From the IMG/VR virus record IMGVR_UViG_644736359_000006: 31,135 bases of DNA. One strand, 5' to 3'. The position numbers and the translations under genes were made by a program. The stretch comes from a virus (lineage: Duplodnaviria; Heunggongvirae; Uroviricota; Caudoviricetes). The notes under the pieces were generated by a model, which was given only the letters and a program-made list of their open reading frames with translations, did not search any database and was not told the DNA's origin. The first letter of the stretch is position 1, and each line of letters starts with the position of its first letter. Of the stretch, positions 1 through 18,299 are shown in pieces.

Positions 1-1284
1 TTACAGACTTCTGGAAGGTTGCGCAGCTCTTACAACACGCGGTTGATCTTCCGCAGCGTCTTCCAGCGCACTTAAATCACGGTCTTTCACCTCTGGCATT
101 TTCAGCGCAGAGATTAAACCAATCACTGAATATGCCATGATCATAATGGCGATCGGATACCAGGATTCCGTCATGGTGCAGAAAATACCCGCCAGGATAG
201 GACCAAAACCGGAAGCGATAAGACCACCAATTTCTTTAGAAATAGCCATCCGGGTAAAGCGGTTTTTACAGCCGAACATTTCTGCCATGGTAATGTTTTC
301 CAGAGCAAATAATCCCAGCACCGCACAGTTATGAATCACAATCAGTGCAACCATAATGGTGCTCGGGGCATAGCTTTTATCTACAATGATAGAAAGCATT
401 GGCCATGCCAGCACAATCGCGGAGGTATTCATAATAATATACGGGATCCGGCGACCAATTTTATCGGATAACCAACCAAGGAACGGAATGGTCATAAAGC
501 CGAGAATCGAACTAATCATCAATGCATCTGTTGGAATTGCTTTGTTAAACAATAACGTCTGCACTAAATAGCCTGCAAGGAAAGTCTGAATTAACCCGGA
601 GTTACCCGCCTGACCAAAACGCAGCCCTGTTGCCAGCCAGAAGGATTTGCTCTGGAACATGCTACCAGCAGGTGCAGGTTTTGCTGTGGGTTGGTTGCTG
701 TCATTAACCTTCTCAAAGACCGGGCTTTCTTTCAGATTCATACGTAACCAGATAGCAAAGACCATCACGACAACGCTCGCCAGGAACGGTATACGCCATC
801 CCCACGCCAGCAGTTCCTCTTTACTGAGAATGAAGAACATAAAGGCCCAGATTGCCGTTGCGCTCAAGGTTCCGCAGTTAGTTCCCATAGCTACAAATGA
901 GGAGATAATTCCGCGCTTACCTTTTGGTGCATATTCCGCCAGCATCGTACCGGCACCGGAAATTTCCGCACCTGCACCCAACCCCTGAATAATACGCAGC
1001 GTCACCAGCAAGATGGGGGCAAAAACACCAATCTGTGCATAGGTCGGTAACACACCAATTAAGGTGGTACAGATCCCCATCATGGTGATGGTAATAAAGA
1101 GCACTTTTTTACGCCCTATTCTGTCGCCCATTTTGCCGAAAATAAATGCTCCGACAATACGCGCCACATAACCTGCACCGTAGGTTCCCATTGCCAAAAT
1201 TAACGCCATTGCCGTTGATGATTCAGGAAAAAATATTTCATGAAACACTAACGCTGCGCCGAGCGAATATAACTGGAAATCCAT
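1..1284 (-). CDS. ydfJ: MFS transporter YdfJ, 427-aa portion lacking the first TM helix (gene split by prophage insertion)
   Basis: 427-aa ORF with multi-TM hydrophobic profile and MFS-type loop GKMGDRIGRKK; begins at MDFQLY...EIFFP without the usual first helix; AT-rich prophage DNA starts immediately upstream (~1285). Confidence 0.8.
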   Translation of the reverse strand: MDFQLYSLGAALVFHEIFFPESSTAMALILAMGTYGAGYVARIVGAFIFGKMGDRIGRKKVLFITITMMGICTTLIGVLPTYAQIGVFAPILLVTLRIIQGLGAGAEISGAGTMLAEYAPKGKRGIISSFVAMGTNCGTLSATAIWAFMFFILSKEELLAWGWRIPFLASVVVMVFAIWLRMNLKESPVFEKVNDSNQPTAKPAPAGSMFQSKSFWLATGLRFGQAGNSGLIQTFLAGYLVQTLLFNKAIPTDALMISSILGFMTIPFLGWLSDKIGRRIPYIIMNTSAIVLAWPMLSIIVDKSYAPSTIMVALIVIHNCAVLGLFALENITMAEMFGCKNRFTRMAISKEIGGLIASGFGPILAGIFCTMTESWYPIAIMIMAYSVIGLISALKMPEVKDRDLSALEDAAEDQPRVVRAAQPSRSL

Positions 1285-2069
1285 AATTCACAGGTGTTTT
1301 TTCCCATCCTGTGGTTCCCTTGGCGTTTTCTAGGTTTTTTCAGATAGTTGCATTTTTTAAAAAGCATCCTGAGTTCGATCTCAGTGTCTATCTGGGGCCT
1401 ATTTCTGTCCCATATATGCCCCAAAAAAACTCCCCAACAGATAAGTGGTTTTTTCATGGATTTATGCGTAAAATCAAGAACGGCTGGAAATCATTCAATA
1501 CACACACTATCGAAAAATTTACCAGCCAACCGCAGCACGTTCTTGCATAAGGCGTGTCTGCGGTTTTTCAACTATTCAGATACATCACTCCCATCACATT
1601 CATTCCTCCGCATCAAAGGCATATAGGCTATATCACCTTGATATTTTTCTTCTTCAGATAAAAACTGTTATCTATGTATACTTTTAAACCCAATCCGTGT
1701 AGAGTCTCTGCATAAGATAGTTTGCAGTTGCCGCTTCAGCTTGCGCCATAAACCGCCTGATTTTTGCTGCCACCTGTTAGCATTCCTGTATACCTGAAAC
1801 GACAATGTTTATCTACGAACTTTAAGAACACCCAAGATAAAAATCGTCAACTATATCATATATAACACATTAATAATTCGAGGCTATATGAACAGCATAC
1901 TGATAATCACTTCTCTCCTTATCATATTCAGCATTTTTAGTCATGCCCTAATAAAATTAGGGATTGGCATATCCAATAACCCAGACAAAACCGATGTATA
2001 AGTCAACATATTCTGAATCAGACATACAATATCGCAATGAAAATCAATAATATTTTAAGGAATATCTTC

Positions 2070-2303
2070 ATGAAATCAAAAGACACCCTAAAGTGGTTCC
2101 CTGCGCAGCTTCCTGAAGTAAGAATTATCCTAGGGGATGCTGTAGTGGAAGTAGCAAAACAGGGAAGACCTATCAATACCAGAACATTGCTTGATTACAT
2201 TGAAGGAAACATAAAGAAAAAATCATGGCTGGATAACAAAGAATTATTACAAACAGCGATATCAGTTCTTAAAGACAACCAAAATTTAAATGGTAAAATG
2301 TAA
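2070..2303 (+). CDS. ydfK: YdfK/YnaE-family small cold-shock-associated protein
   Basis: 77-aa ORF MKSKDTLKWFPAQLPEVRIILGDAVVEVAKQGRP...; AAGGAA Shine-Dalgarno about 8 nt upstream of ATG at 2070. Confidence 0.8.
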   Translation: MKSKDTLKWFPAQLPEVRIILGDAVVEVAKQGRPINTRTLLDYIEGNIKKKSWLDNKELLQTAISVLKDNQNLNGKM

Positions 2304-2618
2304 TATAATTAACTTACTTTTTTATCATTTTCCACTTTAACAACATTTTGCTCCACTTTTCCACGACCAAACAACTTGAAATCTGGTTAAAATAACACGC
2401 AACACTATTCTTCTTCCTTGAGTCCGCCTGGAACTCGAAAAACAAACCGAGTTAAAGCCATTTTTCACAAAATCGATTTTGGGTCTCACCAAAATTACGG
2501 GGTTGCATACGCATTCGTTTATTTTCGAACGTGTACATACAAATATGCACAAAAATAATCAAAATTATTTTCTGAGATGCATTATGATATGAACACCAAT
2601 TTCGTATAGAGTCTCACT

Positions 2619-3209
2619 ATGTCTCGAATTTTTGCTTACTGTCGGATATCAACGCTGGATCAGACCACCGAAAATCAACGCCGGGAAATCGAAAGTGCAG
2701 GTTTTAAAATCAAACCTCAGCAAATAATCGAAGAACACATTAGCGGCTCAGCAGCAACCAGTGAGCGTCCTGGTTTTAACCGGTTGCTTGCTCGCCTGAA
2801 ATGTGGTGATCAATTGATTGTGACAAAATTGGATCGCCTTGGTTGTAATGCAATGGATATCAGGAAAACAGTGGAACAACTGACCGAAACAGGTATCAGA
2901 GTGCATTGCTTAGCATTGGGGGGCATTGACCTGACCAGTCCAACAGGAAAAATGATGATGCAAGTAATTTCAGCAGTCGCTGAATTTGAACGAGACCTTT
3001 TACTTGAACGCACTCATTCCGGGATAGTAAGAGCCCGGGGCGCAGGGAAACGTTTTGGTCGACCACCTGTGTTAAATGAAGAACAGAAACAGGTGGTATT
3101 CGAACGGATTAAGTCAGGTGTAAGTATAAGTGCCATTGCCCGGGAATTCAAAACCTCGCGGCAAACCATTTTAAGAGCCAAAGCAAAACTTCAGACACCT
3201 GACATATAA
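2619..3209 (+). CDS. pinQ: Serine recombinase / DNA invertase Pin
   Basis: 196-aa [23 protein letters not shown]... with resolvase-type catalytic N-domain and C-terminal HTH; sits between ydfK and the tail-fibre genes as in Qin. Confidence 0.85.
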
Positions 3210-3436
3210 AAAATAATCTCGGTGTGAGATGCTTTACGTCTTCCAAGCCCCCTTCCTTGCCGTAAATGGAAAGATACATCTAATTATAGAATTTATATGT
3301 TTTACCCTACGGCAGTGCTGGCCATTCAATATCCTGTGCAGTTGACGTATCAACACGGTTCAGCAACACCCGATACTTTTTCCTGGCTTCCAGCAACGGG
3401 GTTTCTTCCTCCGTTGCATATACAGCTCACCTTTTT

Positions 3437-3730
3437 TCACCCACGATTAACCAACAGCCAGATCAGCAGACACGCCACCACCGGCACAGCAAAATCCATC
3501 AGGCTTGCCACATCCCAAACACGCGGATCAAAACCGCCCCACCACGGCATGTTAATCCGCTTGCCATGCCCGAACATTTCAATCCAGCGATATTCTGCCT
3601 GGGTGTGTTCACGCGCAATGAAGAACGTACAACCAGCTATCGCCCCATAAGCCCAGTTTCCGGTAAAAAGACCAACCAGTGTCTGCGCAGCCACAGCACA
3701 AAGCGCATGAAGAAAAGGTGTTATATCCAT
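3437..3730 (-). CDS. Hypothetical small membrane protein
   Basis: 97-aa ORF with two hydrophobic segments; AGGAGG Shine-Dalgarno directly upstream of ATG at 3730; family not recognised. Confidence 0.45.
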   Translation of the reverse strand: MDITPFLHALCAVAAQTLVGLFTGNWAYGAIAGCTFFIAREHTQAEYRWIEMFGHGKRINMPWWGGFDPRVWDVASLMDFAVPVVACLLIWLLVNRG

Positions 3731-3740
3731 TACTCCTCCT

Positions 3741-4445
3741 TTATCTAATATCGCTTCGGGAAGTTAATAACAACTTTAATTCTGACTCAAGTTCATCAAC
3801 TCTTTCAGTCAGTTTCTGGATATGGTGAATCAGTGGAACAACCAGACGTTCGTACATTACACCTTCGGCAACAAGGCCATTGCTGGAAATAGCTTCAGGA
3901 GCATCATCTTCGTTAGCTGGTCGCCAGTGTACAAACTGAGGAGCAATTTCTCCTACTTCCTCGGCAATCAATCCGTAGAATCCCCAGTCACGCCTGTCAT
4001 TTTCGCATTGCGACCTGTACCACACAGGGCGCATCCTGAAAATGAGATCGGCGTGCTCTGAATCTATTGTCTCTACTGAATGTTTATAGCGGATAGACGA
4101 TGTTGACCGCAGCACAGACGAAATTGCAGGGTCAGGATTAAGATAAAGGTTTGCCGCCGCTGTAGTCGTGGCCAAATTCCATAAATAAAACGCTTCACGA
4201 CCTGTCAGTGGATAAAAATCTCCGCCATAACGACCACTTTCCAGATCGTTCACTTCCACTTTGTTTTTCAGCTTATTATCAACTTCAGTTTTTGTGTATC
4301 TGGAGCTGATATCCTGCTTTGCACTGGTCATCTCAGTCTGAAGCGTTGATACTTTTCTGCTAATTGATGAAATATCTTCCTTAGCTTTACTGACATCCCC
4401 CTTTAGCTTGGTGATATCTCCTGGAATTACTGTCGATGTAGCCAT
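3741..4445 (-). CDS. Tail-fibre-associated protein with C-terminal intramolecular-chaperone (peptidase S74-like) domain
   Basis: 234-aa ORF; N-terminal coiled-coil-like K/S/T-rich stretch; C-terminal motif SSIRYKHSVE...GLIAEEVGEIAPQFV...GVMYERLVVPLIHHIQKL resembles the endosialidase/tail-spike chaperone domain. Confidence 0.45.
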   Translation of the reverse strand: MATSTVIPGDITKLKGDVSKAKEDISSISRKVSTLQTEMTSAKQDISSRYTKTEVDNKLKNKVEVNDLESGRYGGDFYPLTGREAFYLWNLATTTAAANLYLNPDPAISSVLRSTSSIRYKHSVETIDSEHADLIFRMRPVWYRSQCENDRRDWGFYGLIAEEVGEIAPQFVHWRPANEDDAPEAISSNGLVAEGVMYERLVVPLIHHIQKLTERVDELESELKLLLTSRSDIR

Positions 4446-4454
4446 TTTCCTGCC

Positions 4455-4736
4455 TCACATCCAGCCACGAAGTTGATGCTCAACAACAACCGCGTATTTA
4501 TCGAATATTGACGATTTTTTTGCATCATTAATGATGCGCACGTTTACAAAATATCCGTCTTCCTTAACACATACCGGCTCGCCATCTTCAGTAAGTTCTC
4601 CGGTTTCTTTGTACACGTTACCTATCACGTCAATAAGAATATCATCCTGCATCGACTCGTCATCATAATAGCCAGCACTCTTCATAAAGGCCGAAAAGTC
4701 GGCCTTGTCTGTGAATTTGATAATTAAATCTCGCAT
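4455..4736 (-). CDS. Hypothetical protein translationally coupled to stf
   Basis: 93-aa ORF whose ATG overlaps the stf stop (TAATG); acidic, no recognisable motif. Confidence 0.4.
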   Translation of the reverse strand: MRDLIIKFTDKADFSAFMKSAGYYDDESMQDDILIDVIGNVYKETGELTEDGEPVCVKEDGYFVNVRIINDAKKSSIFDKYAVVVEHQLRGWM

Positions 4737-7114
4737 TATATTATCTCTCCCATTTGCGCATCGGTTAATTCTTTATGCCATATTCTAAAATTCCTGATAT
4801 AACCAAATAAATGACGTAAGCCGGCTGTAGTCTGGCCTCCAATCCTTATACCTGTAGCACCACTAACACTCTTCCACGTTGTTGATGCTGGTGTTGATAA
4901 AACCCCATTGCAGCCAGCCTGAAACTTGCCATCGCTTTTTATTCTATATACAGCGATAATCTTTCTTGGGTAATTTCCAGGTGGAAATGATATTGGATTA
5001 CCAAATTGAACATATGGAGTTCCTACACTACCTGCTGTATTTCTGAATGCAAAAACAAAAGCGTCGTCTTTTGTTTTAAATCCTGTTATATCATAAATTC
5101 TAGGCGCGGAATTTGGTGCTATAGACCAATTTTTATTCACTTCAACCATGCAGGTTAAAGGTTTGCTGGCCATGTTATTTTTACAAGGCAATGTAACAAT
5201 ATCGCTTGCTCGCGTTGATGCAACTGTATCGGAAATGATAAAAGATGATGCGCATGAGCCGCCTTCAAATTGTGGTGTCGTAACATCCAAATATTCCCCG
5301 CCCAAATAAGTTCCAGGTGAAACAGGTGGAGCAATTTGGATCTGAGAGCCAACCATATTATCAATAGCTTCAGATTGATATGTAACCTCGAAATAAATCC
5401 ATCCATTAGATTCTTTCTCCGCTCGGGCGGTTATTCTTGCAGCCCCTCCTCCCGTTTTCCTAATGGACATATCTGTTATATTAAGATATGCATCTGCCAG
5501 ATAAAAATATGCGGACCCGTCATATCTTTCAAATCTTATACGACATTGTATATTAGCACTATCGCTTTTTACACGACATGATGTTGTAACATACTTTTCA
5601 GTTCCAGTAACATCGACACCTCTTCCTCCTGAAACCGCAGCGATATTCATTGTCGTATTTGTCCCAATTTTTTCGTCCTTTATTTGAAACCGCCCATAAG
5701 TAAAGCCAAACTCATCAACACCACTTTCTGTTATAGTTACACTTGTTGTAGCTCCCCACTTAGATGGCGTAAGTGAATTAAGATGATAGTTGGTTCTTTG
5801 TCCTTCAATCAGCAAACCTTCTCGTTCAAATCGCGGTTCGTCAACTTCAGCAACGGTTAATACTCCTGATTTATTAATGTATGTTGCACCTGATGCGCGT
5901 TTGAAGCTAACAACCTTATCGGATGGCATTTTAATAACATCATCACCTACAGTTATTTGCTTATAACCAGGCGAAAAGCCAGCAAGCATATCCAGTGAAT
6001 CGTTAAACGGTATCCACACATCGGGAAGCGGCTGCAAAACTTGTTTATACGGCTCCGCAGCCTGGCTTGCATACTCTCTGGCTGCGTCTTCACTTGCTTT
6101 TGCAGCCGTCTGGCTTGCAGCGGATGCTTTCGCCGAGTTAGCCGCCGCAGTCTCGCTCGCCTTTGCGTTGGTTTCACTGGTTTTTGCAGCTTTTTGACTG
6201 TTGGCTGATGCAGTGGCAGAAGAAGCCGCCGCACTTGCAGAACCAGCTGCGGCACTCTCGCTTTGGGCCGCTGCATCCTGACTGTTTTTCGCCGCAGTTT
6301 CGCTGGCTTTGGCATTCGTTTCGCTGGTCTTCGCTGCCGTCTGGCTGGACTTTGCGTTAGTTTCGCTCGTCTTCGCTGCTTTCTGGCTGTTAGCTGCAGC
6401 AGTTGCTGATCCAGCTGCTGAAGTCGCAGAACCGGCTGCCGCACTCTCGCTTTCGGCTGCTGCAGCCTGACTGCTTTTCGCCGCAGTTTCACTGGTTTTG
6501 GCATTCGTTTCGCTTGTTTTCGCTGCCGCCTGGCTGGACTTTGCGTTGGTTTCGCTCGTCTTTGCTGCTGTCTCGCTATTTTTCGCGTTGTTTTCTGATT
6601 TTTTAGCTGCTGTCGCGGAGTTTGCCGATGCAGTCTGCGAGGCCGCTGCCGCCTGTGCGCTGTTAGCTGCATGCGTTTCTGAGGTTTTCGCCGCGTTCTT
6701 CGATGATGCCGCTGCTGTTTCTGATTTCTTTGCTGCCGCTGCGCTCTGAGAGGCGGCTTCAGCGTTGCGTGCTGCTTCTTCCACCATTGCCTCAAAACGA
6801 CGCAATGCCTCCGGCATGACATCATCTTCCGTCATGGCACCGAGAAAATCATTCAGCGTACCAGGTCTGGAACCTTCATAGACGGTAATGGTTCCGGCAT
6901 GTGAAGGCGGAAAACCTTCAACCAGCAGGGTGACGCTGTACTGGCCATACTCGACATCCATGCTGTAACGCCCGGCTTCATCCGGATTTTCAGAGGCTAC
7001 CGTGTTCACCAGTACCGTGGTGCTGTTACGCTTTGCCTTCAGTTGAATAGTGCAGTTCTGTATTGGTTTTCCCGCACCATCTTTCAGCACACCTGAGATT
7101 TTTACTGCTGCCAT
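4736..7114 (-). CDS. stf: Side tail fibre protein, lambda Stf-like N-terminus, Ala/Ser/Thr-rich repeat shaft, LamG/ConA-like C-terminal domain
   Basis: N-terminus MAAVKISGVLKDGAGKPIQNCTIQLKA... matches lambda Stf; GGAG RBS before ATG 7114 (ORF track starts at upstream GTG 7120); C-terminal ...LFGYIRNFRIWHKELTDAQMGEII resembles the LamG jelly-roll end motif. Confidence 0.85.
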   Translation of the reverse strand: MAAVKISGVLKDGAGKPIQNCTIQLKAKRNSTTVLVNTVASENPDEAGRYSMDVEYGQYSVTLLVEGFPPSHAGTITVYEGSRPGTLNDFLGAMTEDDVMPEALRRFEAMVEEAARNAEAASQSAAAAKKSETAAASSKNAAKTSETHAANSAQAAAASQTASANSATAAKKSENNAKNSETAAKTSETNAKSSQAAAKTSETNAKTSETAAKSSQAAAAESESAAAGSATSAAGSATAAANSQKAAKTSETNAKSSQTAAKTSETNAKASETAAKNSQDAAAQSESAAAGSASAAASSATASANSQKAAKTSETNAKASETAAANSAKASAASQTAAKASEDAAREYASQAAEPYKQVLQPLPDVWIPFNDSLDMLAGFSPGYKQITVGDDVIKMPSDKVVSFKRASGATYINKSGVLTVAEVDEPRFEREGLLIEGQRTNYHLNSLTPSKWGATTSVTITESGVDEFGFTYGRFQIKDEKIGTNTTMNIAAVSGGRGVDVTGTEKYVTTSCRVKSDSANIQCRIRFERYDGSAYFYLADAYLNITDMSIRKTGGGAARITARAEKESNGWIYFEVTYQSEAIDNMVGSQIQIAPPVSPGTYLGGEYLDVTTPQFEGGSCASSFIISDTVASTRASDIVTLPCKNNMASKPLTCMVEVNKNWSIAPNSAPRIYDITGFKTKDDAFVFAFRNTAGSVGTPYVQFGNPISFPPGNYPRKIIAVYRIKSDGKFQAGCNGVLSTPASTTWKSVSGATGIRIGGQTTAGLRHLFGYIRNFRIWHKELTDAQMGEII
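6120..6600. repeat. Tandem 189-bp (63-codon) repeats inside stf
   Basis: Unit beginning gcactctcgcttt at 6252 recurs at 6441 (period 189 bp, ~90% identity) with a degenerate copy upstream; encodes repeated ...SESAAAGSA...ANSQKAAKTSETNAK... blocks; explains the shadow ORFs on both strands. Confidence 0.7.
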
Positions 7115-7125
7115 ATCCACTCCAC

Positions 7126-7151
7126 AAAAAAGCCCGCCTGAACCGGCGGGC
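7126..7151 (-). terminator. Rho-independent terminator after lom
   Basis: Stem gcccgcc/ggcgggc (7132-7138, 7145-7151) followed on the minus strand by a run of six U. Confidence 0.55.
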
Positions 7152-7178
7152 TGTCATAACACTGTGTTACCTGGCTAA

Positions 7179-7778
7179 TCAGAATTTATAACCGACACCC
7201 ACGATGAAACCGTCAGTGCGCCAGTCACCACTGCCGGAACCTTCATAAGCAAGGTCAATGGCCACGGATTCGGTCGGGTTAAACTGCACGCCAGCCCCCC
7301 ACGCCAGAGACGTGTTGCTGTGGCGACCGTCATCACTTCCGGTCAGCACATCGTGCGTTTTCCCCTTGTTGTCAGTTACGCGGAGATAATCCCCGGAGAA
7401 GGTCGACACACGGCTGTAAGCCATACCCGCCATCGCATACGCGCTGAACCATTCATTCACGCGCACAGACGGCCCCGCCATCACGCTGAACCAGCGGTTA
7501 CGCACGGAATCTTCATGCCAGCGGGTATCGCTGTAATGCGTTTTTTGCTCATCTTTGGCATTGGCATAACTGAATGACGTCACCAGCCCCAGCGTGTCCG
7601 TAAACTCATAACGGTATTTCACGTTAATCCCGTTCAGATCATCGCTGCCGGGAACGTTCGTCGAGGCATGAAGATACCCCGCGCTCAGCGTGGACTGATG
7701 TTCAGACGCCCATGCAGGCGCACCGGATACGGCCAGACAAATGGCTACGGACAAAATGGCGGCATAAAGTTTACGCAT
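7179..7778 (-). CDS. lom: Lom/Ail/OmpX-family outer-membrane protein
   Basis: 199-aa ORF with signal peptide, alternating beta-strand pattern and C-terminal ...GVGYKF; located between J and stf as in lambda; GAGAGG RBS. Confidence 0.8.
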   Translation of the reverse strand: MRKLYAAILSVAICLAVSGAPAWASEHQSTLSAGYLHASTNVPGSDDLNGINVKYRYEFTDTLGLVTSFSYANAKDEQKTHYSDTRWHEDSVRNRWFSVMAGPSVRVNEWFSAYAMAGMAYSRVSTFSGDYLRVTDNKGKTHDVLTGSDDGRHSNTSLAWGAGVQFNPTESVAIDLAYEGSGSGDWRTDGFIVGVGYKF

Positions 7779-7802
7779 AATTACCTCTCGCTTTTCTGCA
7801 AT

Positions 7803-7826
7803 AAAAAAGGCGTCATTTCTGACGCC
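7803..7826 (-). terminator. Rho-independent terminator after J fragment
   Basis: Stem ggcgtca/tgacgcc with tttc loop, followed on the minus strand by UUUUUU. Confidence 0.55.
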
Positions 7827-7844
7827 CGTTATGGGTTATAAAAT

Positions 7845-9148
7845 TCAGCTAATCATGATGCCTGCAGTGGCTTTCTTCATCACCACAACCAGCAAATCGC
7901 TGATACTTGCTGTGGGATACCAGCCATTTACCAGCCATGCCGATACAGAAAATTCCAGTGTCATTACACCACTGCCTGCAGGCATATCAATAACACCCGT
8001 ATATATCAGCGTATTATCCAGAGCCGTTCGGTTATAAATTTCAGCACCGTTTTTTCGTACTATCAGACGGCATGAGGAGTAGATATCAGTATGATCTTGC
8101 TCATGTTTAGCGCCACTGAATGCCACCGCCGGAATAACAATTTGCCGGTCAAACGGCTGATCGTCATAAACCCTGACGGTAATGGTCCCTGATGGCCACC
8201 GCTCCGGTGCACGGGAGTCCCGGGGGAAAGCTTTGCCCACTGTTTTAACGAGATCGCCTTCAATCTGGTTCGCGGACAGTTTTCCCAGAACCCGGCAGTT
8301 CTCGTTAATCGTGACGTTGTTGAGCGTCCCGGAGTTCGCATTCACGTTACCGCTAATATCGGCATTTTTCGCCGTCAGCCGCCCGTCCGGTGTCAGGGAA
8401 AATGCCGGAGGATTACCGCCGCTGGTAATGGTGGGAGCCGTCAGATATTTCAGGAACACTTCGTTCATGAATATCTGATCGCCCTGACCAACAAACATCG
8501 GCTTTGTGTTGCCATTCGCAGGATTAATCATCGCAATCCTGTCCGCCGCCAGCAGCACCTGACTCTGCATACCGTCAGGGGTATTCTCAATACCGGCACC
8601 AATACCCGCGATATAAAGGCGTCCGTCCTGCATCTGCTGCAGCTTCACAGCCCACATGCTGTTCAGGTTATTATTTGTATCAACCTGAACCTTCTGTATC
8701 TGCTGGATTGCCGCACTCTGGTCTTCCAGTTTCTTATTGACGGTCTGCGTGATTTCATTACTGACATCCGTGATGGACGTTCTGATTTCCGCCAGGTCAG
8801 GCGCAAGCTGACCGTTATCAATCTGCGTCCACAACTCCTGAGCCAGATGGGTTTTCCCTATCTCTCCTTTGAAAAAATTCAGATAGCCGGATGCATCATC
8901 ACTCGGCTGGCCAACAGCCTCCACGAATGCCGATTTGCCAACGGTGTTCACACTGCGGATGTAAAAATAATAATCATGGCCCGGTTTGATATTGATACTG
9001 GCGGCTATCCAGTACAGCGCCGTGCCAAGATAGCGTGCTGTGGTTTCAACCTGCCTGATATCCGCAATCCGCTTTTCCGAGAACCAGAACTCAAACTGTA
9101 CCGTCGGATCATAAACCGCAAGATGCGGCGTGGCGGTTATCTGAAAAT
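7845..9148 (-). pseudogene. Host-specificity protein J (tail tip), C-terminal ~434 codons only, 5' end removed by IS3
   Basis: Long ORF runs without a native start straight into the IS3 left end at 9149; position upstream of lom matches lambda J. Confidence 0.7.
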
Positions 9149-9204
9149 TGATCTTACCCAGCAATAGTGGACACGCGGCTAAGTGAGTAAACTCTCAGTC
9201 AGAG

Positions 9205-9513
9205 GTGACTCACATGACAAAAACAGTATCAACCAGTAAAAAACCCCGTAAACAGCATTCGCCTGAATTTCGCAGTGAAGCCCTGAAGCTTGCTGAACGC
9301 ATCGGTGTTACTGCCGCAGCCCGTGAACTCAGCCTGTATGAATCACAGCTCTACAACTGGCGCAGTAAACAGCAAAATCAGCAGACGTCTTCTGAACGTG
9401 AACTGGAGATGTCTACCGAGATTGCACGTCTCAAACGCCAGCTGGCAGAACGGGATGAAGAGCTGGCTATCCTCCAAAAGGCCGCGACATACTTCGCGAA
9501 GCGCCTGAAATGA
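9205..9513 (+). CDS. insE: IS3 OrfA (InsE), HTH transposase component
   Basis: ORF ...[31 protein letters not shown]... with C-terminal leucine-zipper-like region; first ATG at 9205, conventional start a few codons later. Confidence 0.85.
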
Positions 9514-10376
9514 AGTATGTCTTTATTGAAAAACATCAGGCTGAGTTCAGCATCAAAGCAATGTGCCGCGTGCTCCGGGTGGCCCGCAGCGGCTGGTATA
9601 CGTGGTGTCAGCGGCGGACAAGGATAAGCACGCGTCAGCAGTTCCGCCAACACTGCGACAGCGTTGTCCTCGCGGCTTTTACCCGGTCAAAACAGCGTTA
9701 CGGTGCCCCACGCCTGACGGATGAACTGCGTGCTCAGGGTTACCCCTTTAACGTAAAAACCGTGGCGGCAAGCCTGCGCCGTCAGGGACTGAGGGCAAAG
9801 GCCTCCCGGAAGTTCAGCCCGGTCAGCTACCGCGCACACGGCCTGCCTGTGTCAGAAAATCTGTTGGAGCAGGATTTTTACGCCAGTGGCCCGAACCAGA
9901 AGTGGGCAGGAGACATCACGTACTTACGTACAGATGAAGGCTGGCTGTATCTGGCAGTGGTCATTGACCTGTGGTCACGTGCCGTTATTGGCTGGTCAAT
10001 GTCGCCACGCATGACGGCGCAACTGGCCTGCGATGCCCTGCAGATGGCGCTGTGGCGGCGTAAGAGGCCCCGGAACGTTATCGTTCACACGGACCGTGGA
10101 GGCCAGTACTGTTCAGCAGATTATCAGGCGCAACTGAAGCGGCATAATCTGCGTGGAAGTATGAGCGCAAAAGGTTGCTGCTACGATAATGCCTGCGTGG
10201 AAAGCTTCTTTCATTCGCTGAAAGTGGAATGTATCCATGGAGAACACTTTATCAGCCGGGAAATAATGCGGGCAACGGTGTTTAATTATATCGAATGTGA
10301 TTACAATCGGTGGCGGCGGCACAGTTGGTGTGGCGGCCTCAGTCCGGAACAATTTGAAAACAAGAACCTCGCTTAG
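9510..10376 (+). CDS. insF: IS3 OrfB (InsF), DDE transposase catalytic domain, in -1 frame relative to orfA
   Basis: 288-aa ORF overlapping the orfA stop (ATGA) in the -1 frame; DDE-type core ...HTDRGGQY... Confidence 0.85.
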
Positions 10377-10529
10377 GCCTGTGTCCATATTACGTGGGTA
10401 GGATCAATTCACCTAAATACGAGGCATTGCTGTAGTTGAATTGCATTGCTGTATTAGCCTGACAGTGACAGAATACGATATTGACTCTGTCACTTGTGAA
10501 ATGGTCAGAATGGTTAGCAGTTATGGTGA

Positions 10530-10736: not shown

Positions 10737-11031
10737 TTTGTCGCTCCATGCGTTTGCTCTTCACTTACGGCTAAAAATATAACGTCAAATCACTCAGCAT
10801 GAAAGAGTGAAAGATTCAGCGCGTTTCCCTTACATAATCTGTCGTTTGTATTCTCTTCAGGCATACCGGAAAGACTAGGTATTGTCACACAACCAATACC
10901 ATCGACAATCGAGATTTATACCTATTCGGTAATGTTTAAATATAACAAAACCCCGTAAAAACGAGGTTTATGGGTAATTTGTATTGTTGAATAGCATCTG
11001 ATGAGAAATTGATGCTAATACTATAAACAGA

Positions 11032-11879: not shown

Positions 11880-12092
11880 TCAAAGTGCCACAACATGAAC
11901 AGCCGCGGGGCCTTTAGGTCCGTTCTCAATACCAAATTCGACTTCCTGATTCTCAGTTAACGTTTTGAAATCGTTGCTCTGAATAGCTGAGAAATGGACA
12001 AACACATCTTTGCTACCATCTTTCGGCGTGATGAAACCAAAACCTTTTTCAGGGTTAAACCATTTCACTAAACCAGTCATTTTGTTAGACAT
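11880..12092 (-). CDS. cspI: CspA-family cold shock protein
   Basis: 70-aa product [38 protein letters not shown]... with RNP1/RNP2 motifs; long AT-rich 5' leader upstream. Confidence 0.85.
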
Positions 12093-12455
12093 CATTATTA
12101 CCTTTTGAAGAAGTTAGCCCTTGGGCAGAATGGTCCGAAAAAAAATATCAGAGAGAAAAACCAACAAGGAAATCTCAAGAGGTACAAATAATAAAATTAT
12201 AACAATGACTGCTTCAGATAATTTTGTAACAAACCAGAACACCATTAACGCATGATTAACCAACCATAGCAAGGATTACTTTTGTAAAGAAAAACACACG
12301 AATGAAACAATAGCTTTATTTATTAATAAAACGTGTCATTCTGTCTAATGACCTTTTATCTTACCCTTAAGATTTCAAGGATTTTGACTCATGGAAGAGT
12401 CCTTTTTATTTAAATTTCACATTCAGCGCTAAAAATAATCCGATTTAATATTAAT

Positions 12456-15489: not shown

Positions 15490-16758
15490 CTGATATCATT
15501 GGGGTTACACCAGGTAAGTATAGGTGGAAAATCAATATTCGCCAGTTCAACAATAAGGAAAATCTCATTGCATCACAACTATAAAACCATGTGTTTAACT
15601 CACAAAAAACAAATCATTAAACTAATCTGTTATATTATAATAGCTGCGTGCAATAATAATATTATATGCTCTTAATATTCACTTGAAATATCTTCATATA
15701 AAAACAGATTGAATAAAATCTTTTGGGGCTGGTATGTTTACCAACATTAAATTGCATCTCAATGTTTTCTTTAGCGTGAACAGGATTTTTATAAAAACTG
15801 ACACTATGAGCATCATAGCGTAGTTTTTACGATTGTAAATATCCTGCATACAGGAACTCATCACTTTCAGATGATATCGCATACAGTTAATTCACCATCA
15901 GTCTTAGAGCCAGTTCTTCCGGATAGGGATCGAAGTAATTCTGTGTAAGCAAGTAATCATTAGGATACTCACCCAGATAATGCTTCAGCAGAGTCAACGG
16001 CGCAAGAAGAGGCAATGTGCCAAAGCGATAGTTAAGTATAACCTCGCTCAACTCTTTACGCTGGCGTGTGCTTAAGTAATTACTAAAATACCCCTGTATA
16101 TGCATCAGCACATTCGTGTGATTTTTACGTGATGCTGGTTTTCTGAGAATCGCCATCAGATTATCACGATACACCTCAAAGTATGATTCAAGGTCCGCCC
16201 ACTCGTGTATTGCAGCCACAAATGGTCCCATATCTTTATAGCCTGCCTGGCTATGCGCCAACAACTGAAGCTTATAACGACTATGAAAAGCTAATAACTC
16301 TCTTCTTGATAATTTCTCCTTGTAAAGGTGATTGAGCTCATCCAAAGCAAAAACTCTTTCAATAAAATTCTCACGAAGCACTGGATCATGTAATCGCCCA
16401 TCCTCTTCAACCGGTAGCCAGGAAAACTTTTCCATCAAAGTGCTCGTAAATAGTCCCACTCCATCTTTACGACCTCGATTACCATTTTCATCATAGACAC
16501 GCACGCGCTCCATGCCACAGCTGGGAGATTTAGCACAAACCACAAACCCCGATACATCCTTTAATTTGTCCATATAAGAACGACTAAACTCTGTCATTCT
16601 CTCTGTCACATCCTCATTCTGGTCGTGGCTGAAACACATCCGTATATTTCCTTGCTTCGAGCGCACAAGTCGTAGAGCAGGACGCGGAACTGGCAGCCCT
16701 ATTGATCTTACCCAGCAATAGTGGACACGCGGCTAAGTGAGTAAACTCTCAGTCAGAG

Positions 16759-17067
16759 GTGACTCACATGACAAAAACAGTATCAACCAGTAAAAAACCC
16801 CGTAAACAGCATTCGCCTGAATTTCGCAGTGAAGCCCTGAAGCTTGCTGAACGCATCGGTGTTACTGCCGCAGCCCGTGAACTCAGCCTGTATGAATCAC
16901 AACTCTACAACTGGCGCAGTAAACAGCAAAATCAGCAGACGTCTTCTGAACGTGAACTGGAGATGTCTACCGAGATTGCACGTCTCAAACGCCAGCTGGC
17001 AGAACGGGATGAAGAGCTGGCTATCCTCCAAAAGGCCGCGACATACTTCGCGAAGCGCCTGAAATGA
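16759..17067 (+). CDS. insE: IS3 OrfA (InsE)
   Basis: Identical product to copy 1 orfA. Confidence 0.85.
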
Positions 17068-17930
17068 AGTATGTCTTTATTGAAAAACATCAGGCTGAGT
17101 TCAGCATCAAAGCAATGTGCCGCGTGCTCCGGGTGGCCCGCAGCGGCTGGTATACGTGGTGTCAGCGGCGGACAAGGATAAGCACGCGTCAGCAGTTCCG
17201 CCAACACTGCGACAGCGTTGTCCTCGCGGCTTTTACCCGGTCAAAACAGCGTTACGGTGCCCCACGCCTGACGGATGAACTGCGTGCTCAGGGTTACCCC
17301 TTTAACGTAAAAACCGTGGCGGCAAGCCTGCGCCGTCAGGGACTGAGGGCAAAGGCCTCCCGGAAGTTCAGCCCGGTCAGCTACCGCGCACACGGCCTGC
17401 CTGTGTCAGAAAATCTGTTGGAGCAGGATTTTTACGCCAGTGGCCCGAACCAGAAGTGGGCAGGAGACATCACGTACTTACGTACAGATGAAGGCTGGCT
17501 GTATCTGGCAGTGGTCATTGACCTGTGGTCACGTGCCGTTATTGGCTGGTCAATGTCGCCACGCATGACGGCGCAACTGGCCTGCGATGCCCTGCAGATG
17601 GCGCTGTGGCGGCGTAAGAGGCCCCGGAACGTTATCGTTCACACGGACCGTGGAGGCCAGTACTGTTCAGCAGATTATCAGGCGCAACTGAAGCGGCATA
17701 ATCTGCGTGGAAGTATGAGCGCAAAAGGTTGCTGCTACGATAATGCCTGCGTGGAAAGCTTCTTTCATTCGCTGAAAGTGGAATGTATCCATGGAGAACA
17801 CTTTATCAGCCGGGAAATAATGCGGGCAACGGTGTTTAATTATATCGAATGTGATTACAATCGGTGGCGGCGGCACAGTTGGTGTGGCGGCCTCAGTCCG
17901 GAACAATTTGAAAACCAGAACCTCGCTTAG
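17064..17930 (+). CDS. insF: IS3 OrfB (InsF)
   Basis: As copy 1 but ...EQFENQNLA instead of ...EQFENKNLA. Confidence 0.85.
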
Positions 17931-18299
17931 GCCTGTGTCCATATTACGTGGGTAGGATCATATAGCCATTTCCGGACATACTGGTCTGAATGTTACCCAT
18001 TCCACTAATTTGTCCATTAAAAAGTCATCTCTTTTGTGACCACCATCAAAACGAACAGCAGAACCGCCCAAACAACCGCTGATCCCAATCACAGGTTTTT
18101 TTATCATTTCCTCCCCCTTGACTAATTCATTAACACATAAACTTTGTAGTGCACGGACTAAATTGCCTTTCTGGCTTCATCACTGACAATTTTTCTGTTA
18201 TTGACTATTCCTAATATAGTAGGAAAGTTCTTTAAGTGATCGGTCGTACTCATCTATCTTTCATACTTACTCTCAACTATCAAAAGTACAGGATTTATT

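Follow-up and report, generated by a model that had tools for sequence, protein, structure and literature searches.

A probable two-part lateral tail-fibre cassette with a lectin-type tip in a Qin-like defective prophage of Escherichia coli

The virus record IMGVR_UViG_644736359_000006 of IMG/VR, a stretch of 31,135 nucleotides hereafter called the window, carries a side tail-fibre gene (stf) followed on the same strand by genes for proteins of 93 and 234 amino acids (aa). We propose that this region is a complete lateral tail-fibre cassette, consisting of a two-part fibre and a small uncharacterised partner, and estimate the probability of this reading at about 0.65. The features observed directly are the domain identities, the heptad shaft with its in-phase variation in length, the hypervariable mosaic tip, the catalytic pair of the 234-aa protein, the gene order and the shared N-terminal motif, and Stf itself is identified as a fibre protein from its sequence. 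An earlier reading of the sequence alone (the sequence-only reading) had described the module as atypical. This description holds relative to lambda itself only, because the cassette is common across phage families. The module is widespread, not unusual, and its architecture has already been outlined for a T5-like phage. The coordinates of all features are given in Table 1.

The N-terminus of Stf is of the lambda type, as had been recognised earlier. The Pfam profile PF08400 matched residues 5-134 of the 794-aa open reading frame (ORF) with 223.5 bits against a cut-off of 26.6, indicating a lambda-type collar domain. For Ur-lambda, residues 1-91 of Stf form a 12-copy collar on the tail tip, and residues 102-393 form a trimeric coiled coil (PMC12617516). 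The shaft of the window Stf is composed of heptads of the type AAKTSET or NAKSSQA, 36 of which follow each other with zero phase breaks. This shaft is homologous to that of the lateral fibre of phage IrisVonRoten, and both the equivalent region of lambda and the shaft of DT57C LtfA are coiled coils. From the heptad pattern we infer that the shaft of Stf forms a trimeric alpha-helical coiled coil. The identical Stf sequence is annotated differently between genomes in RefSeq: some records carry one intact fibre gene, and in others, including NZ_CP115178, it appears as several pieces: a 'head spike fiber domain' protein of 417 aa, a 'phage tail protein', an N-terminal pseudogene and, on the opposite strand, two small ORFs.

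The 189-bp tandem repeats noticed in the shaft by the sequence-only reading were detected both by Tandem Repeats Finder (TRF) and by a repeat search. One unit of 189 bp encodes 63 aa, which is exactly nine heptads. The length of the shaft was then compared for 119 E. coli homologues, phage IdasGreatGrand and phage 21, using two conserved landmarks on its flanks. The distance between these landmarks differed from that in the window by -105, -63, -7, 0 or +63 aa, all of which are multiples of the heptad. One repeat unit fewer is present in IdasGreatGrand, and one more in homologues of 854-864 aa, in agreement with the expectation that the repeat number varies between relatives. Since the length changes in steps of whole heptads, the repeat number alters the length of the fibre, leaving the coiled coil undisturbed; by standard coiled-coil geometry, one 189-bp unit would correspond to roughly 9 nm of fibre length.

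The C-terminal 420 residues of Stf were modelled as a monomer with AlphaFold, using 64 diverse sequences, and two beta-sandwich domains, C1 and C2, were predicted with a mean local confidence (pLDDT) of 90.7 and a predicted template-modelling score (pTM) of 0.88. A search of 1.84 billion representative proteins with these residues gave 1,333 relatives, of which 282 were below an E-value of 1e-10. Among the listed matches to the full query, the matched part was located at or near the C-terminus of proteins of 438-1481 aa. C1 passed the NCBIfam model NF048003 (gene transfer agent head-spike fibre domain) over Stf residues 437-638 (51.7 bits against 36), and its profile matched Rcc01080, the head-spike fibre of the Rhodobacter capsulatus gene transfer agent (RcGTA), with an E-value of 9.7e-43. 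Rcc01080 is a single subunit and binds capsular polysaccharide (PMC7296036, PMC10218006). For C2, the Pfam profile Laminin_G_3 (PF13385) covered the last 70 residues only and scored 23.7 bits, below its gathering score of 27.6 (E 5.9e-5), and the predicted structure was a jelly-roll beta-sandwich superposable on LamG, pentraxin or CBM40 domains. The profile match and the fold bear out the earlier claim that the tip is of the LamG/ConA type and not of the Tfa-dependent type of lambda. No catalytic domain was matched in the C-terminal 420 residues.

Marked differences in conservation were observed along Stf. Across the 120 best E. coli homologues, identity was mostly at least 95% for the N-terminus and shaft, about 55% for C1 and about 45% for C2. 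In addition, C1 and C2 assort independently, one homologue having a C1 of 99% and a C2 of 46% identity and another a C1 of 94% and a C2 of 100%. Hypervariable and mosaic domains behind a conserved N-terminus and shaft are what is usually seen where receptor-binding domains undergo diversifying exchange. From the fold, the hypervariability and the RcGTA relative of C1, we infer that C1 and C2 bind surface glycans, either lipopolysaccharide (LPS), O-antigen or capsule, and that a Tfa-type chaperone is not needed. The Stf of Gifsy-1, which binds Gal II of the LPS core (PMC12312913), was considered as a relative; no Gifsy record was found among the best 60 of the 215 tblastn records, and it was not used for assignment of a ligand. 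The publication on lambda Stf chimeras has no content on this lectin-tipped type of fibre. The C1 protein sequence was 93% identical to that of Gp22 of the virulent T5-like phage IrisVonRoten (locus L003, 2614-5004), with an identity of 46% for C2 and a shaft that is also far more diverged. As judged from these sequences, this implies that C1 alone would have been swapped recently between temperate and virulent phage lineages.

The order of fibre gene, gene for about 92 aa and gene for a third protein was found in lambda-like, T1-like, Nonagvirus and T5-like phages. IdasGreatGrand, temperate and lambda-like, encodes an Stf of 731 aa followed by proteins of 93, 234 and 95 aa; the corresponding sizes are 655, 92 and 231 aa for PeterMerian (T1-like), 703, 92 and 351 aa for JenP1 (Nonagvirus), and 796, 92 and 574 aa for IrisVonRoten. 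The rV5-like phage CarlMeissner encodes a fibre of 1479 aa with C1-C2 at its end and, after it, a small-protein homologue of 110 aa. In phage 21, the third gene is absent, and the fibre gene is followed by a 92-aa gene and a gene for a 97-aa membrane protein. The third proteins of IdasGreatGrand, PeterMerian, JenP1 and IrisVonRoten have wholly different middles, carry the chaperone domain at the end, and all start with M-(A/V)-T-x-T-(V/I)-I-P-x-D-I-T-x-L-K. Used as a tblastn query, the first 36 residues detected this motif in many more T1-like, Nonagvirus and T5-like records, where it opens the third gene at positions that fit the coordinates of the fibre and small-gene matches.

By tblastn, the C1-C2 module was detected in 215 phage records, the small protein in 181, and a protein like that of 234 aa in 53. 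Parts of the module are also carried by lambda-like 'PhiR' phages (GenBank PV3405xx), for which no describing publication was found. Lambda-like, T1-like, Nonagvirus and T5-like coliphages exchange this cassette, of which rV5-like phages have a more distant version, and it is one of the commonest side-fibre solutions in E. coli siphoviruses. IdasGreatGrand, with all four genes, and phage 21, in which the third gene only is missing, provide tractable and fully sequenced temperate systems.

The C-terminus of the 234-aa protein was found to carry a peptidase S74 domain, as the sequence-only reading had suggested. The Pfam profile PF13884 ('chaperone of endosialidase') matched residues 116-172 with 27.5 bits against 22. 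All 35 aligned homologues, at 28-96% identity with the window protein, have Ser116 and Lys121 (Ser-x4-Lys), located at profile positions that we take to be those of the endosialidase catalytic Ser/Lys pair, and autocleavage after Ser116 is predicted. The family profile also matched the last 124 residues of PDB chain 8hqz_d, an 'L-shaped tail fiber assembly' of 1076 aa (E 3.7e-7), which we take, unconfirmed, to be LtfA of DT57C. In a Foldseek search with the C-terminal half of the model, the MyRF ICA (7dc3) was matched with an E-value of 1.4e-5 and a TM-score of 0.57 on the target, followed by weak matches to GA-1 (3gud) and endoNF (3gw6) with E-values of 0.07-0.3. The S74 part was modelled with a confidence of 78-90, and its fold is that of S74 domains. 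In the monomer model, residues 11-47 form a helix that is probably a coiled coil. Residues 71-116 were of low confidence, as would be expected if an interdigitated trimer tip is modelled as a monomer.

The 234-aa protein aligns to positions 1147-1383 of PHROG 3299, which has 1385 positions, and its tip and chaperone part are also found at the C-terminus of longer fibre proteins. Together with the clearly defective state of the prophage, these matches could be taken to mean that recombination displaced the 3' part of a longer fibre gene and left it here as a non-functional ORF, a possibility that had been raised with the original proposal. However, the ORF is uninterrupted and starts from an ATG of its own behind a purine-rich ribosome-binding site, and a stand-alone gene for 231-234 aa with the same N-terminus is conserved in isolated phages of two families, as represented by IdasGreatGrand and PeterMerian. 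Furthermore, its closest cluster includes 2,928 member sequences, and the N-terminal motif recurs in four phage groups, in distal fibre proteins that range from 231 to 574 aa. We therefore regard the displaced fragment as very unlikely.

The 234-aa protein more likely functions as a short distal subunit of the fibre, its chaperone domain acting on the protein itself, than as a chaperone for Stf. A chaperone acting in trans, which would fold or trimerise Stf as a substitute of Tfa and stay outside the virion, would agree with the chaperone-of-endosialidase domain and with the curation of T1-like homologues as 'putative lateral tail fiber chaperone'. It would also agree with the lack of a tfa gene: none of the three proteins encoded downstream of Stf matched the Tfa family (Caudo_TAP) in Pfam or NCBIfam, and, as claimed earlier, the lambda-type Tfa is absent after Stf except for a remnant of 36 codons. 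However, the S74 domains of endoNF, T5 pb1 and GA-1 act on their own polypeptides and are then cleaved off. Stf is independent of the 234-aa protein, because phage 21 has Stf and the 92-aa gene without the third gene, and the number of records with a 93-aa homologue far exceeds that with a 234-aa homologue. The same slot, with the same N-terminal motif, is occupied by receptor-binding proteins of 351-574 aa in T5-like and Nonagvirus phages. Moreover, the lectin folds of Stf were modelled confidently as a monomer, and their RcGTA relative is a single subunit. These observations altogether make a trans-acting chaperone unlikely, and support the distal fibre subunit.

The start codon of the 93-aa gene overlaps the stop codon of Stf in the sequence TAATG, in accordance with the translational coupling claimed by the sequence-only reading. 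All seven loci inspected have a homologue of about 92 aa directly 3' of the fibre gene, which it overlaps by 1 or 4 nt. The 93-aa protein gave no match in Pfam, NCBIfam, PADLOC or PDB profiles; a Tfa-like nature was considered and found no support in these searches. The consulted text of the published accounts of the IrisVonRoten and DT57C fibres does not discuss the 92-aa protein (PMC11990801, PMC4728585, PMC10713586). Since the small gene persists in phage 21, where the third gene is missing, we lean to a function connected with Stf. We give even odds to an assembly factor that acts on or with the C-terminal region of Stf, and see an adaptor retained there as a more doubtful option. It is also possible, though less likely than not, that the 93-aa protein is a universal virion connector, retained where the lectin-tipped proximal fibre ends and capturing the peptide MxTxTVIPxDITxLK of interchangeable distal fibres, or else represents a new class of assembly chaperone unrelated to Tfa. 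If the connector were true, it would constitute a plug-and-socket system, by which distal receptor-binding proteins could be traded between lambda-like, T1-like, Nonagvirus and T5-like phages with no change to the remaining fibre. Understanding the swapping of distal fibres via the N-terminal peptide would be useful for host-range engineering of lambda-based delivery particles.

Assembly of the proposed two-part fibre would proceed as follows. By homology with lambda, a homotrimer of Stf would join the tail-tip collar via its N-terminal domain, and would present three pairs of lectin-like domains to a surface glycan with no Tfa chaperone involved. The 93-aa protein would be made in step with Stf via the start/stop overlap. 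The 234-aa protein would trimerise as a short distal fibre. Its S74 domain would fold the tip of this fibre and then be released by self-cleavage after Ser116, so that a mature piece of about 12.5 kDa remains. The conserved N-terminal peptide would dock this mature piece onto the distal end formed by Stf and the 93-aa protein.

Several points weigh against this proposal. The docking step is drawn from synteny, from the N-terminal motif of 16 residues that the third proteins have in common, and from a prediction published for a relative. In the 234-aa protein, the predicted tip (aa 71-116) is short, and its lambda-like and T1-like versions are well conserved, at 56-96% identity. A typical receptor-binding tip is variable, so that this one may serve as a structural cap and not as an adhesin. 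In the six comparison loci, the sequence identity of the 93-aa protein tracks neither C1, C2 nor the third gene. Its role is a guess, because relatives of known function were undetectable.

Table 1. Features of the fibre cassette and its surroundings (positions in the window)
Feature	Position	Strand	Remarks
Stf	4736-7114	-	792 aa counted from the ATG used by homologues; reading frame unbroken
Stf N-terminal collar/attachment domain, aa 1-132	6719..7114	-	Pfam PF08400 'Prophage tail fibre N-terminal', E 1e-66
Stf shaft, aa 106-357	6044..6799	-	uninterrupted Ala/Ser/Thr/Glu-rich heptads
189-bp tandem repeat	6143..6577	-	2.3 copies, 83% matches, TRF score 597
Stf domain C1, aa ~362-640	5195..6031	-	beta-sandwich homologous to RcGTA head-spike fibre
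Stf domain C2, aa 641-792	4739..5194	-	ConA-like lectin / LamG / pentraxin-type jelly roll; most variable part
93-aa gene	4455..4736	-	PHROG 1361, 'unknown function'
234-aa gene	3741-4445	-	begins 9 nt after upstream stop
Predicted mature part, aa 1-116	4098..4445	-	conserved N-terminal peptide MATSTVIPGDITKLK, helical stretch, short tip
Peptidase-S74 intramolecular chaperone domain, aa 117-234 and stop codon	3741..4097	-	Pfam PF13884
97-aa predicted membrane protein	3437..3730	-	strong AGGAGG site after 234-aa stop; PHROG 1443, unknown function
Tfa remnant, last 36 codons	3307..3417	-	RefSeq pseudogene; between cassette and pinQ
pinQ	2619-3209	+	intact Pin-family invertase gene
lom	7179-7778	-	
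J gene remnant	7845-9164	-	last 439 codons kept, adjoining IS3

Downstream of the 234-aa gene, the 97-aa protein has near-identical counterparts in phage 21, where it is annotated with two transmembrane domains, and in IdasGreatGrand. In lambda-like phages its gene is always located directly behind the fibre genes, whereas the T1-like, Nonagvirus and T5-like loci inspected showed no counterpart at that place. The protein gave no match to a defence system, and may be co-transcribed cargo that is expressed in lysogens. The DNA shared with phage 21 runs from window position 3361 onward, and that shared with IdasGreatGrand only from 3452. The Tfa remnant has the look of a scar, left on the right-hand side when the cassette replaced stf-tfa long ago. 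In phage 21 (locus L004, 1-2485), the iron/manganese transporter genes sitBCD follow the cassette as cargo, in the place of pinQ.

The pinQ gene is located about 100 bp from the Tfa remnant, and E. coli K-12 carries the order pinQ-tfaQ-stfQ at the same locus. The genes next to pinQ might thus be a Pin-invertible segment for switching of fibre tips, as known for the G segment of Mu, the C segment of P1 and the P segment of e14. However, long inverted repeats linking the pin-proximal region and stf were not found, and no inverted repeats or crossover cores able to define an invertible segment were detected in the vicinity of pinQ or within stf. The crossover core AAACCNNGGTTT is absent from the region, and a single match with one mismatch in the window, at 10958, compares with a chance expectation of 1.3. 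All four genes are co-oriented with Stf, so that none of them is an inverted alternative copy, and the same gene order was observed in phages showing no invertase in the stretches inspected. Tip switching by inversion is thus extremely unlikely, and pinQ appears orphaned.

Many E. coli chromosomes, among them those of several strain B derivatives, match window positions 3300-7200 with 100% identity, and positions 1-10406 are 99.98% identical to the strain B record NZ_CP115178. The exact 3.9-kb stretch is present to at least 80% in 72 of the 5,426 complete E. coli genomes, and in part in 5,287. The cassette is located in a lambda-like and Qin-like defective prophage, next to ydfJ, ydfK and pinQ, and the integrase of this prophage is frameshifted according to its annotation. 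Along the minus strand, the gene order is J remnant, lom, Stf, the 93-aa, 234-aa and 97-aa genes, and Tfa remnant, with pinQ on the other strand. The cassette in the window is unable to build virions alone, because J is truncated at the adjacent IS3. The prophage copy is still whole and could be acquired by incoming phages through recombination, and for the window itself, it is an ordinary, well-preserved relic inside a defective prophage.

Strong terminator-like hairpins with T-runs were detected on the minus strand at 7131-7152, in the gap between lom and stf, and at 7808-7827, in the gap between J and lom; the annotation of phage 21 has a terminator in the matching gap upstream of stf. With hairpins at both sites, expression of the fibre would therefore need antiterminated late transcription. 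Two IS3 copies, at about 9147-10406 and 16701-17960, bracket about 6.3 kb, and the first copy abuts the truncated end of J. A CspI-like cold-shock gene (11880-12095) is located inside this IS3-flanked segment. NZ_CP115178 is without the 6.3 kb and without one IS3 copy, which is consistent with deletion via recombination between the IS3 copies.

The window cassette was compared with known fibre systems. It shares with the Stf/Tfa system of lambda (PMC12617516) the PF08400 collar domain, a homologous proximal coiled-coil shaft and the position after J and lom. In place of the hinge, the T4 gp37-like OmpC-binding distal domain and Tfa of lambda, however, the window has C1-C2 and the 93-aa and 234-aa genes. 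RcGTA Rcc01080 shows clear sequence homology to C1, and binding of capsular polysaccharide is its own property. In contrast to Stf, it is a single subunit that is anchored on the capsid pentons by a Leu-Gly repeat, belongs to no trimeric tail fibre, and lacks C2 and partner genes. The S74 domains of the K1F endosialidase, the L-shaped fibre pb1 of T5 and the neck appendage of GA-1 share with the 234-aa protein the Pfam match, the Ser-x4-Lys pair and the fold. In these systems S74 ends large fibres or spikes, whereas only 116 aa precede it in the window protein.

The branched lateral fibres of DT57C, made of two proteins, were shown genetically (PMC4728585; PMC10713586). LtfA/LtfB of DT57C and DT571/2 resemble the window cassette in the two-protein composition, which is proposed for the window, in the coiled-coil shaft, and in S74 self-cleaving domains with a predictable cleavage motif; LtfB of DT57C reaches the virion only through LtfA. 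Both DT57C proteins end in S74, whereas the window Stf ends in lectin domains without S74. Docking of LtfB was proposed to occur via a phiEco32 gp15-like N-terminus onto a mid-LtfA region related to phiEco32 gp14, but the window motif is different, and a small third gene is not described for DT57C.

IrisVonRoten (Bas32) is the T5-like phage for which the architecture has been outlined. In the AlphaFold-Multimer model of the BASEL authors, Gp24 attaches to the proximal fibre Gp22; Gp24 is T-shaped with two receptor-binding domains, and a 'galectin-like domain' at the C-terminus of Gp22 is a possible extra receptor-binding domain (PMC11990801). The IrisVonRoten locus shares with the window the three-gene order, the stop/start overlap and the Ala-rich heptad shaft, and, besides the C1 and C2 identities given above, its small protein (Gp23, 92 aa) is 40% identical. 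Gp24 and the 234-aa protein have in common the N-terminal MxTxTVIPxDITKLK motif and the C-terminal chaperone domain. Differences are found at both ends of the fibre: IrisVonRoten has a T5-type attachment domain that needs LtfC, whereas the window Stf has the lambda collar type, and the third protein of IrisVonRoten has 574 aa and two receptor-binding domains, whereas the window has a minimal version of 234 aa. The Gp22-Gp24 type of gene order, with a C1-C2 fibre, a gene for about 92 aa and a protein carrying both the motif and the chaperone domain, is thus present in the window.

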